Origin: an uncultured Parachlamydiaceae bacterium
Lineage (GTDB): Bacteria; Chlamydiota; Chlamydiia; Chlamydiales; Parachlamydiaceae
NCBI GenBank assembly: GCA_963742415.1
Contig: CAVULX010000003.1
Span: 374,616-438,615, forward strand
DNA: 64,000 nucleotides
Direction: 5' to 3'
Below the pieces are notes generated by a model. The model ran no database searches. It was not told the DNA's origin and saw nothing but the letters and a program-made list of their open reading frames with translations. The position numbers and the translations under genes are program-made. Shown here piece after piece: positions 60,706 through 60,904 of the stretch (within the stretch, counting starts at the first letter, position 1; every line of letters begins with the position of its first letter).

Positions 60706-60904
60706 AATTATGTCGTCCCTACAGGACTCCGTTTTTTTTGCATTTTACCCAGGCCTTCGCTTCGCTACGACCTGGGCTATAACATTTCGGCCTTTCAGGC
60801 CGTTTTCAGCGCCGAAGGCGCGGAATATCATAGCCCAGGTCGTAGCGAAGCGAAGGCCTGGGTAAAATGCAAAAAAAACGGAGTCCTGTAGGGACGACAT
60901 AATT
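60706..60904. repeat. 199-bp GC-rich palindromic element: perfect 75-bp inverted arms around a 49-bp core with two mini-hairpins
   Basis: The arm 60706-60780 is the exact reverse complement of 60830-60904, checked base by base. The core contains cggcctttcaggccg (60788-60802) and gcgccgaaggcgc (60809-60821). Confidence 0.9.

Follow-up and report, generated by a model that had tools for sequence, protein, structure and literature searches.

The 64,000-nt stretch of DNA analysed here (the window) comes from an uncultured Parachlamydiaceae bacterium, and our subject is a 199-bp palindrome that lies in it between two convergent genes, thrS and a gene for a BTB/POZ-domain protein (Table 1). The BTB/POZ domain is eukaryote-like, which fits an amoeba-associated environmental chlamydia. 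The thrS stop codon (TGA, 60663-60665) is 41 nt upstream of the palindrome, and both this setting and the perfect arms reported in a preliminary description of the sequence were confirmed: the arm at 60706-60780 matches the reverse complement of the arm at 60830-60904 in 75 of 75 bases, and no perfect extension exists outward or inward. When mismatches are allowed, the arms measure 91 nt at 93%. The 49-bp core holds two unequal GC hairpins, cggcctttcaggccg (60788-60802) and gcgccgaaggcgc (60809-60821), again as first described. The palindrome had also been called far more GC-rich than its flanks; it is indeed richer (49.7%; 500-bp flanks 40.8%, whole window 41.6%), although that wording somewhat overstates the difference. 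Two open reading frames (ORFs) that cross it, 60607-60891 on the plus strand and 60745-60969 on the minus strand, had been dismissed as mirror-image artefacts; both exist, and both lie on repeat DNA.

Folded as RNA, the palindrome reaches -170.9 kcal/mol (z = -24). As single-stranded DNA (ssDNA) it reaches -112 kcal/mol (z = -28) in the form of a 75-bp stem capped by two small hairpins, and each half alone, as ssDNA, forms three local hairpins. The preliminary description had doubted that an ordinary terminator would take this form, and we reject an ordinary intrinsic terminator, as no U-tract follows the palindrome stem.

The palindrome is part of a longer insertion, consistent with an early suggestion that a miniature inverted-repeat transposable element (MITE) might be involved. 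It lies inside a 369-bp element (60670-61038) with terminal inverted repeats (TIRs) and a 6-bp target-site duplication (TSD). This carrier fills the spacer between thrS and the BTB gene, whose stop codons would stand 13 nt apart without the insert. The window palindrome came as the cargo of this MITE, which inserted between thrS and the convergent gene and duplicated GATGAA; its TIRs and 6-bp TSD imply transposition of the DDE type, by cut-and-paste or by copying. The right part of the carrier, B, is 96% identical to C4:120379-120512 and C4:1105060-1105193 and 91% identical to C4:1299726-1299855 (contig C4 of the same genome). Part B also contains a terminator-like hairpin with a T-rich tail (TGAAAGGGTCAATTCCTTTCA AATTTCTTTA) at 60948-60968 on the plus strand, and any termination of thrS within the insert would more probably take place there. 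A match to the S15 leader at 60931-61041 (26 bits, where 39.5 are needed) was taken as chance.

Table 1. Features of the locus and the Y1 transposase gene of the same genome. Coordinates are those of the window unless a contig is named.
Feature	Coordinates	Strand	Evidence and remarks
thrS, threonyl-tRNA synthetase	58737-60665	+	ORF; Pfam TGS, tRNA_SAD, tRNA-synt_2b, HGTP_anticodon
Left TSD copy, GATGAA	60664-60669	.	Overlaps last two bases of thrS stop codon
Carrier left part, A	60670-60705	+	TIR GTCGATGCTGATTTAAC (60670-60686); A flank recurs beside most palindromes
199-bp palindrome, REPIN-like inverted doublet: two three-hairpin units, asymmetric core	60706-60904	.	Arms, fold, copy number
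Left half-unit	60708-60802	+	Model R1, 85.1 bits; ssDNA fold
Right half-unit	60808-60902	-	Model R1, 88.4 bits; ssDNA fold
Carrier right part, B (subfamily 2)	60905-61038	+	Inverted TIR GTTAATTCAGCATCGAC (61022-61038)
Right TSD copy, GATGAA	61039-61044	.	TSD scan
BTB/POZ-domain protein gene, convergent	61054-62394	-	ORF; Pfam BTB
Y1_Tnp gene, single copy	G000:C4:1304374-1304854		PF01797, 81.6 bits

The genome to which the window belongs (G000; 2.69 Mb in four contigs, C1-C4, from an assembly that is 84% complete) contains 31 copies of the palindrome, and the possibility of a single-copy sequence, left open in the preliminary description, can be set aside. All 31 lie outside long ORFs. Ends of the type TTATGYCGTCCTTACAGGACTC number 67: pairs are convergent in 31 cases, which are the palindromes, and divergent in one, and three ends stand alone. 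About 19 copies have a length of ~195 bp, others contain one to six extra inner units, and tandem arrays are found inside palindromes (86 bp x 6.1 copies; 85 bp x 5.1 copies), as are internal deletions in some copies. Contigs C1 (71 kb) and C2 (284 kb) carry none of the 31 palindromes, where about four would be expected by length; these contigs may be plasmids or a different replicon. An assembly artefact was rejected, given 31 loci with different flanks and the same units in independent assemblies, and so were integron attC sites and CRISPR repeats, the copies being dispersed, inverted and free of cassettes or spacers.

Each palindrome is built from units of ~95 nt that run in the order foot TTATGYCG, hairpin Z', a spacer of 18-30 nt, hairpin Y' (CCCAGGCC...GGCCTGGG), linker CTATnAnATnYCG and hairpin X'. 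Hairpins Y' and X' together constitute the Rfam motif Acido-Lenti-1 (RF01687), to which Z adds a third hairpin; the two-hairpin module and its linker, GCUAnnnnUAUGYCG, are those of the published seed alignment (PMC2864571). The left half-unit of the window copy is composed of the foot TTATGTCG, Z' (60715-60727), the spacer, Y' (60748-60776), the linker CTATAACATTTCG and X' (60788-60802), and the right half-unit, read on the minus strand, of Z (60883-60895), Y (60834-60862) and X'' (gcgccgaaggcgc, 60809-60821). RF01687 matches the right half at 60808-60862 (-) with 43.6 bits, above the gathering threshold of 37, and the left half at 60748-60802 with 35 bits, just below it; the genome as a whole yields ~92 matches. 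The foot GTAG (GT[AG]G) is not found in these units, where the foot reads TTATGYCG or ATnYCG. CGTC-tagged repetitive extragenic palindromes (REPs), with their 8-9-bp stem, AT start and CCA tail, do not fit either, and covarying variants of Z' lose the CGTC.

The exact 22-mer end is also present in assemblies labelled Chlamydiae, Parachlamydiaceae, Tannerellaceae, Prevotella, Verrucomicrobia, Korobacteraceae and Cloacimonetes. In these assemblies the two halves are frequently arranged in the opposite order, X-Y-Z-(15-31 nt)-Z'-Y'-X', and the dominant form in our genome is the permuted order Z'-Y'-X'-X-Y-Z. Across 144 distinct units, 95.2% of stem cells are paired (83.6% in shuffles), changes on both sides are seen in 15 of 18 stem pairs, and only 3 of 2591 cells are G-U. 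Such strict Watson-Crick pairing suggests that both strands matter.

A search for a Y1/RAYT transposase that might act on the palindrome, as proposed at the outset, found a single Y1_Tnp gene in the genome, flanked by inverted half-units. An X-Y-Z unit on the opposite strand ends 17 nt before its ATG, and a Z'-Y'-X' unit on the same strand begins 2 nt past its stop; the chance of both flanks falling within 100 nt of the gene is ~2.5e-5. Just past the downstream unit stands a different duplicated hairpin-rich repeat, ACCTGGGGCAACGCCCCAGGTAATTCCATTGAAA...GCAGGC... (locus L114, 2010-2140; G000:C4 ~1304950-1305080), which is outside the palindrome family.

Intact homologues of the Y1 gene with the same unit flanks are present in chlamydial assemblies (L094, L039/L137, L136, L138 and L146; L-numbers denote other loci), and at L094 a full palindrome lies on each side of the gene. 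The same layout recurs in Verrucomicrobia (L120), Tannerellaceae (L119), Prevotella (L116), Cloacimonetes (L117) and Korobacteraceae (L118, L125, L126, L128 and L131), so that the gene-plus-units architecture spans five phyla. As a guard against selection bias, we picked 80 metagenome loci by protein only and scanned them with a three-hairpin covariance model. Units were found in 78 of the 80 loci, with an opposite-strand unit upstream of the gene in 53 of 77 (median distance 14 nt), a same-strand unit downstream in 56 of 76 (median 9.5 nt) and units on both sides in 42 of 73. Among 40 relatives, RF01687 and the Y1 gene occur together in 15, RF01687 alone in four, the Y1 gene alone in three and neither in 18 (Fisher p = 8e-5, for relatives that are not independent of each other); where relatives have the Y1 gene, its copies number one to five and are mostly 30-60% alike. 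At the Cloacimonetes locus a group II intron (RF02001, 46 bits; L117 178-349) adjoins the Y1 gene, and the Acido-Lenti-1 motif was noted to lie sometimes near group II introns (Weinberg et al. 2010, PMC2864571). The Tannerellaceae gene has an in-frame TGA just past its YIxxQxEHH motif.

The Y1 proteins are 146-153 aa long and share the motifs (D/N)H[IVA]H, WQxGYG and YIxxQxEHH in an alignment of 14 proteins. Judged by their motif signature, length and C-terminal tail, they fit subclass 1.2 of TnpA-Y1 (Quentin et al. 2018, PMC6006769), with which they have in common the HuH motif DH[IV]H, the W motif WQ, the Y motif Y---Q--HH (YIKNQKEHH), a size of ~148 aa, a conserved C-terminal tail and a low copy number per genome. 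That study describes the subclass as low copy, without insertion sequence (IS) properties, without typical IS200 end structures and as "REP: no"; unlike in this published account, three-hairpin units that recur across the genome stand on both sides of the gene here. The closest solved structures are those of IS608 TnpA (2a6m, E = 9e-6) and ISDra2 TnpA, and the IS200 model scores 54.2 bits (cut-off 55). The Y motif is not the Y---NP of class 2, to which TnpA-REP belongs; the Acidobacteria "TIRYT" proteins of Di Nocera carry these class-2 motifs (Y..NP) and were rejected as another family. Some public sources label the present proteins RayT or IS200/IS605 transposase.

We conclude that the palindrome is probably a REPIN-like doublet, that is, two inverted ~95-nt units of the repeat cognate to a ~150-aa Y1/HUH transposase of subclass 1.2, and that this copy is MITE-borne; of the early candidates, a REP/RAYT-type substrate is supported by the tie to the Y1 gene, and a MITE by the TIRs and 6-bp TSD of the carrier. 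The system is REPIN/REPtron-like, is built on a different Y1 subclass and a three-hairpin unit, and is here the cargo of a lineage-specific MITE. As in REPIN/RAYT and REPtron systems (Nunvar 2010; Bertels & Rainey 2011, PMC3116915; Ton-Hoang 2012, PMC3333891), a low-copy Y1/HUH gene lies between inverted copies of a repeat that is far commoner elsewhere in the genome, gene-less inverted doublets give long hairpins with compensating changes on both arms, tandem clusters are ordered, and copies lie outside genes, for the most part at gene 3' ends. The doublets can likewise adopt either of two folds, a long hairpin or a "clover" of local hairpins. Unlike in REPIN/RAYT, the enzyme is of class 1, subclass 1.2, and not a class 2 TnpA-REP; the unit is ~95 nt with three hairpins, whereas a REP is a single one of 20-40 nt; the foot is TATGYCG in place of GTAG; the carriers are Chlamydiota, Verrucomicrobiota, Bacteroidota, Acidobacteriota and Cloacimonadota, whereas REPIN/RAYT is found mainly in Proteobacteria; and most copies here sit inside a separate TIR-MITE. 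Besides the solved enzymes, IS200/IS605 elements and the gene-less palindrome-associated transposable elements (PATEs) offer a parallel in their subterminal hairpin ends, and the Bacteroidales gene-less form X-Y-Z-(15-31 nt)-Z'-Y'-X' resembles the two ends joined. In contrast to IS200/IS605, the gene plus its ends does not occur in several near-identical copies (the gene is single copy in our genome), the ends are mutually inverted, there is no tnpB, and the dominant order is the permuted one.

The proposed mechanism draws on these analogies. Mobilisation of ssDNA hairpins has been proposed for REPIN/RAYT and shown for IS200/IS605. By extension, the Y1 enzyme would bind and cut the footed local hairpins on ssDNA, for example on the lagging-strand template, and its cleavage would mobilise gene-less doublets; we infer this step from the two systems named. 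The window copy itself did not come by such a route but inside its MITE.

Several observations weigh against a REPIN-like doublet mobilised by this enzyme. In the gene as assembled, a 25-bp tandem duplication (AAAAGATAGATACCCCTTTATTCAT, 2.4 copies; G000:C4:1304421-1304481, L114 1481-1541) stops translation after 25 codons; present-day mobility driven by Y1 would require that the duplication be heterogeneous or that the unassembled ~15% contain an intact copy. The protein reaches 21.4 bits with the REP_Tyr_transpos model NF047646 (cut-off 80) and gave no match to the E. coli RAYT structure in a search of the PDB; together with the motifs, these results rule out a classical RAYT. The spread of the 24 of 31 copies found in MITE context requires no Y1 enzyme. 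A scan for TIR pairs around a transposase in the 84% complete assembly returned chance pairs only. The seven free copies have flanks that revealed no consistent target sequence, duplication or footprint of the palindrome as such, and an IS630-type TA duplication or any other fixed target was rejected on the same flanks. Finally, a palindromic layout could by itself account for the scarcity of G-U pairs, which is compatible with transcription.

The MITE itself can be traced through the genome by the conserved flanks A and/or B that border 24 of the 31 palindromes. A and B make an element of ~370 bp with TIRs GTCGATGCTGA(T/A)TT...AATTCAGCAYCGAC, without an ORF, in many copies and with subfamilies. 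A TSD signal appears at k = 6 only: four duplications are perfect, and 11 of 18 agree in at least 5 of 6 positions where 1.5 would be expected (P < 0.0005). In its TIRs, fixed-length TSD, high copy number, subfamilies and want of an ORF, the 369-bp carrier resembles Correia/NEMIS, ERIC and Nezha. It differs from these in a TSD of 6 bp and not TA, in that no parent IS was found in our genome or the 40 relatives, and in the unrelated second mobile repeat at its middle. The best candidate parent, C4:27332, was rejected as a truncated MITE end beside an unrelated ORF.

Some MITE copies depart from this plan. Several read A-palindrome-A' instead of A-palindrome-B, with the 6-bp duplications kept, and two (C4:343109-343301 and C4:1105060-1105517) form the exact centre of further inverted flank repeats of 38-45 nt, which makes them nested palindromes. 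Three truncated remnants (C4:27332-27390, C4:376004-376060 and C4:486195-486235) consist of part A and 17 nt from the start of the palindrome. They share a single breakpoint inside the Z' hairpin, directly after CCTTACAG, and two run on into the same unrelated sequence; this point could be a recurrent nick site or mark another composite subfamily.

The palindrome might be no more than an internal part of a DDE-type MITE, unrelated to the Y1 gene, with the units beside that gene being chance insertions. The shared flanks, TIRs and 6-bp TSDs of the 24 copies favour this view, as does the broken Y1 gene. Against it stand seven copies whose flanks are unrelated, a MITE copy that has its own TSD but no palindrome (~C4:166216-166359), and MITE backbones ~68% alike that hold palindromes 94-96% alike. 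The MITE TIR was not found in the 40 relatives, where units occur, and units accompany the gene in five phyla, and on both sides of it in 42 of 73 metagenome loci that were not selected for them. This cross-phylum adjacency of gene and units largely refutes a MITE-only origin, which we consider extremely unlikely.

A structured RNA, another of the early candidates, finds support in Rfam: the palindrome would then be two Acido-Lenti-1 small RNA genes or one long hairpin RNA. The match at 60808-60862 (-) exceeds its threshold, the hairpins covary strongly, Weinberg et al. 2010 (PMC2864571) considered the motif likely to be an RNA, and a transcript of thrS or the BTB gene could read into the element. 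The motif nevertheless stands on both strands in mirror image, in ~92 copies in a 2.7-Mb genome and in tandem arrays of 85-86 bp; it moves within a TSD-making element and flanks the Y1 gene in fixed inverted orientation across phyla, its stems have almost no G-U (3/2591 cells), and no promoter or terminator is tied to the unit. Unlike RF01687 as filed, a small RNA gene, the repeat seen here behaves as one of DNA, tied to a transposase, present on both strands and extended by hairpin Z. The strict pairing and mirror layout of the units, their number, their arrangement in tandem arrays and their association with a transposase lead us to favour a DNA-level element; an RNA gene is very unlikely and the weakest of the candidates first listed.

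The preliminary description had held that perfect 75-bp arms imply very recent origin or active maintenance, and the evidence supports maintenance, with private variants mirrored on both arms and arms more uniform than the carrier flanks. Two old copies aside, the arms of any one copy are 92-99% complementary, and arm identity between copies averages 83%. At arm positions 1-70, 16 copy-private variants are found on both arms and ~13 on one, where independent mutation should hardly ever place a variant on both; a T-to-C change private to the window copy affects both of its Z hairpins. Between MITE copies the arms are 91% alike and the flanks 71% alike, with no correlation (r = 0.08), and the window MITE, whose backbone is ~68% like that of the main subfamily, has palindrome arms 93-96% like the main subfamily's. 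The asymmetric core takes either orientation relative to the flanks about equally often (9 vs 8) and is inverted between the window copy and its sister at C4:1105196, although their palindromes are 99% and their B flanks 96% alike. These patterns point to recombination or hairpin-templated repair between arms, combined with exchange between copies, as the process that keeps the arms matched; selection for the hairpin is an alternative. The parvovirus inverted terminal repeat (ITR), which exists in flip and flop forms, provides an analogy only: it too is a long stem with two small unequal cap hairpins, found with both core orientations and served by the HUH enzyme family, but there is no homology and our element is chromosomal.

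Carried further, these observations lead to a proposal that we hold tentatively. An active process, and not youth, would keep the arms perfect, through hairpin-templated arm conversion, flip-flop of the core, and exchange or re-insertion of doublets at one fixed joint of long-diverged MITE backbones, all in a genome whose sole cognate Y1 gene is disrupted. On a wider scale, the abundant Rfam family Acido-Lenti-1 would act at the DNA level, as the recognition module of TnpA-Y1 subclass 1.2, rather than being an RNA.

The position of the copies raises a further possibility, that the palindrome serves the host as a bidirectional transcription barrier or a stabiliser of mRNA 3' ends between convergent genes, its mobility being incidental. 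Convergent ORFs border 21 of the 31 palindromes, compared with 16% of all spacers (binomial 2e-10); the fold is extremely stable, the arms are conserved well above the carrier DNA, and enterobacterial REPs are known to act in this way (PMC3733652). This bias, however, belongs to the MITE-borne copies (20 of 24) and not to the free ones (1 of 7), and may reflect MITE targeting of such sites or tolerance of insertions there. The palindrome moreover has no U-tract terminator, the sole terminator-like site being in part B of the MITE; relatives show no copies at conserved positions, and the MITE is restricted to its lineage. We therefore think a barrier role unlikely, if conceivable; it and the doublet reading are not exclusive and can both hold.

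Our data indicate that the Acido-Lenti-1 motif and TnpA-Y1 subclass 1.2 are two halves of one REPtron-like system that extends over at least five phyla. If true, this would give a function to an orphan "RNA" family, which an October 2026 preprint still lists as of unknown function, and to an orphan enzyme subclass across many phyla, and annotations that call Acido-Lenti-1 motifs small RNA genes would need revision. The TATGYCG foot plus hairpin may, by analogy, represent a new candidate recognition logic for HUH enzymes. Within a single genome, one mobile repeat rides inside another, and long perfect palindromes outlast through concerted evolution and core inversion, which bears on genome stability in environmental chlamydiae.

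The window holds a second, diverged unit of the same class at 44777-44855 on the minus strand (37.5 bits with model R1), within which RF01687 scores 41.9 bits at 44777-44821. At least eight further 45-nt matches like 44777-44821 are present in the genome, for example at C3:85857, C4:1035485 and C4:1289424, and together with this unit they look like a separate subfamily.

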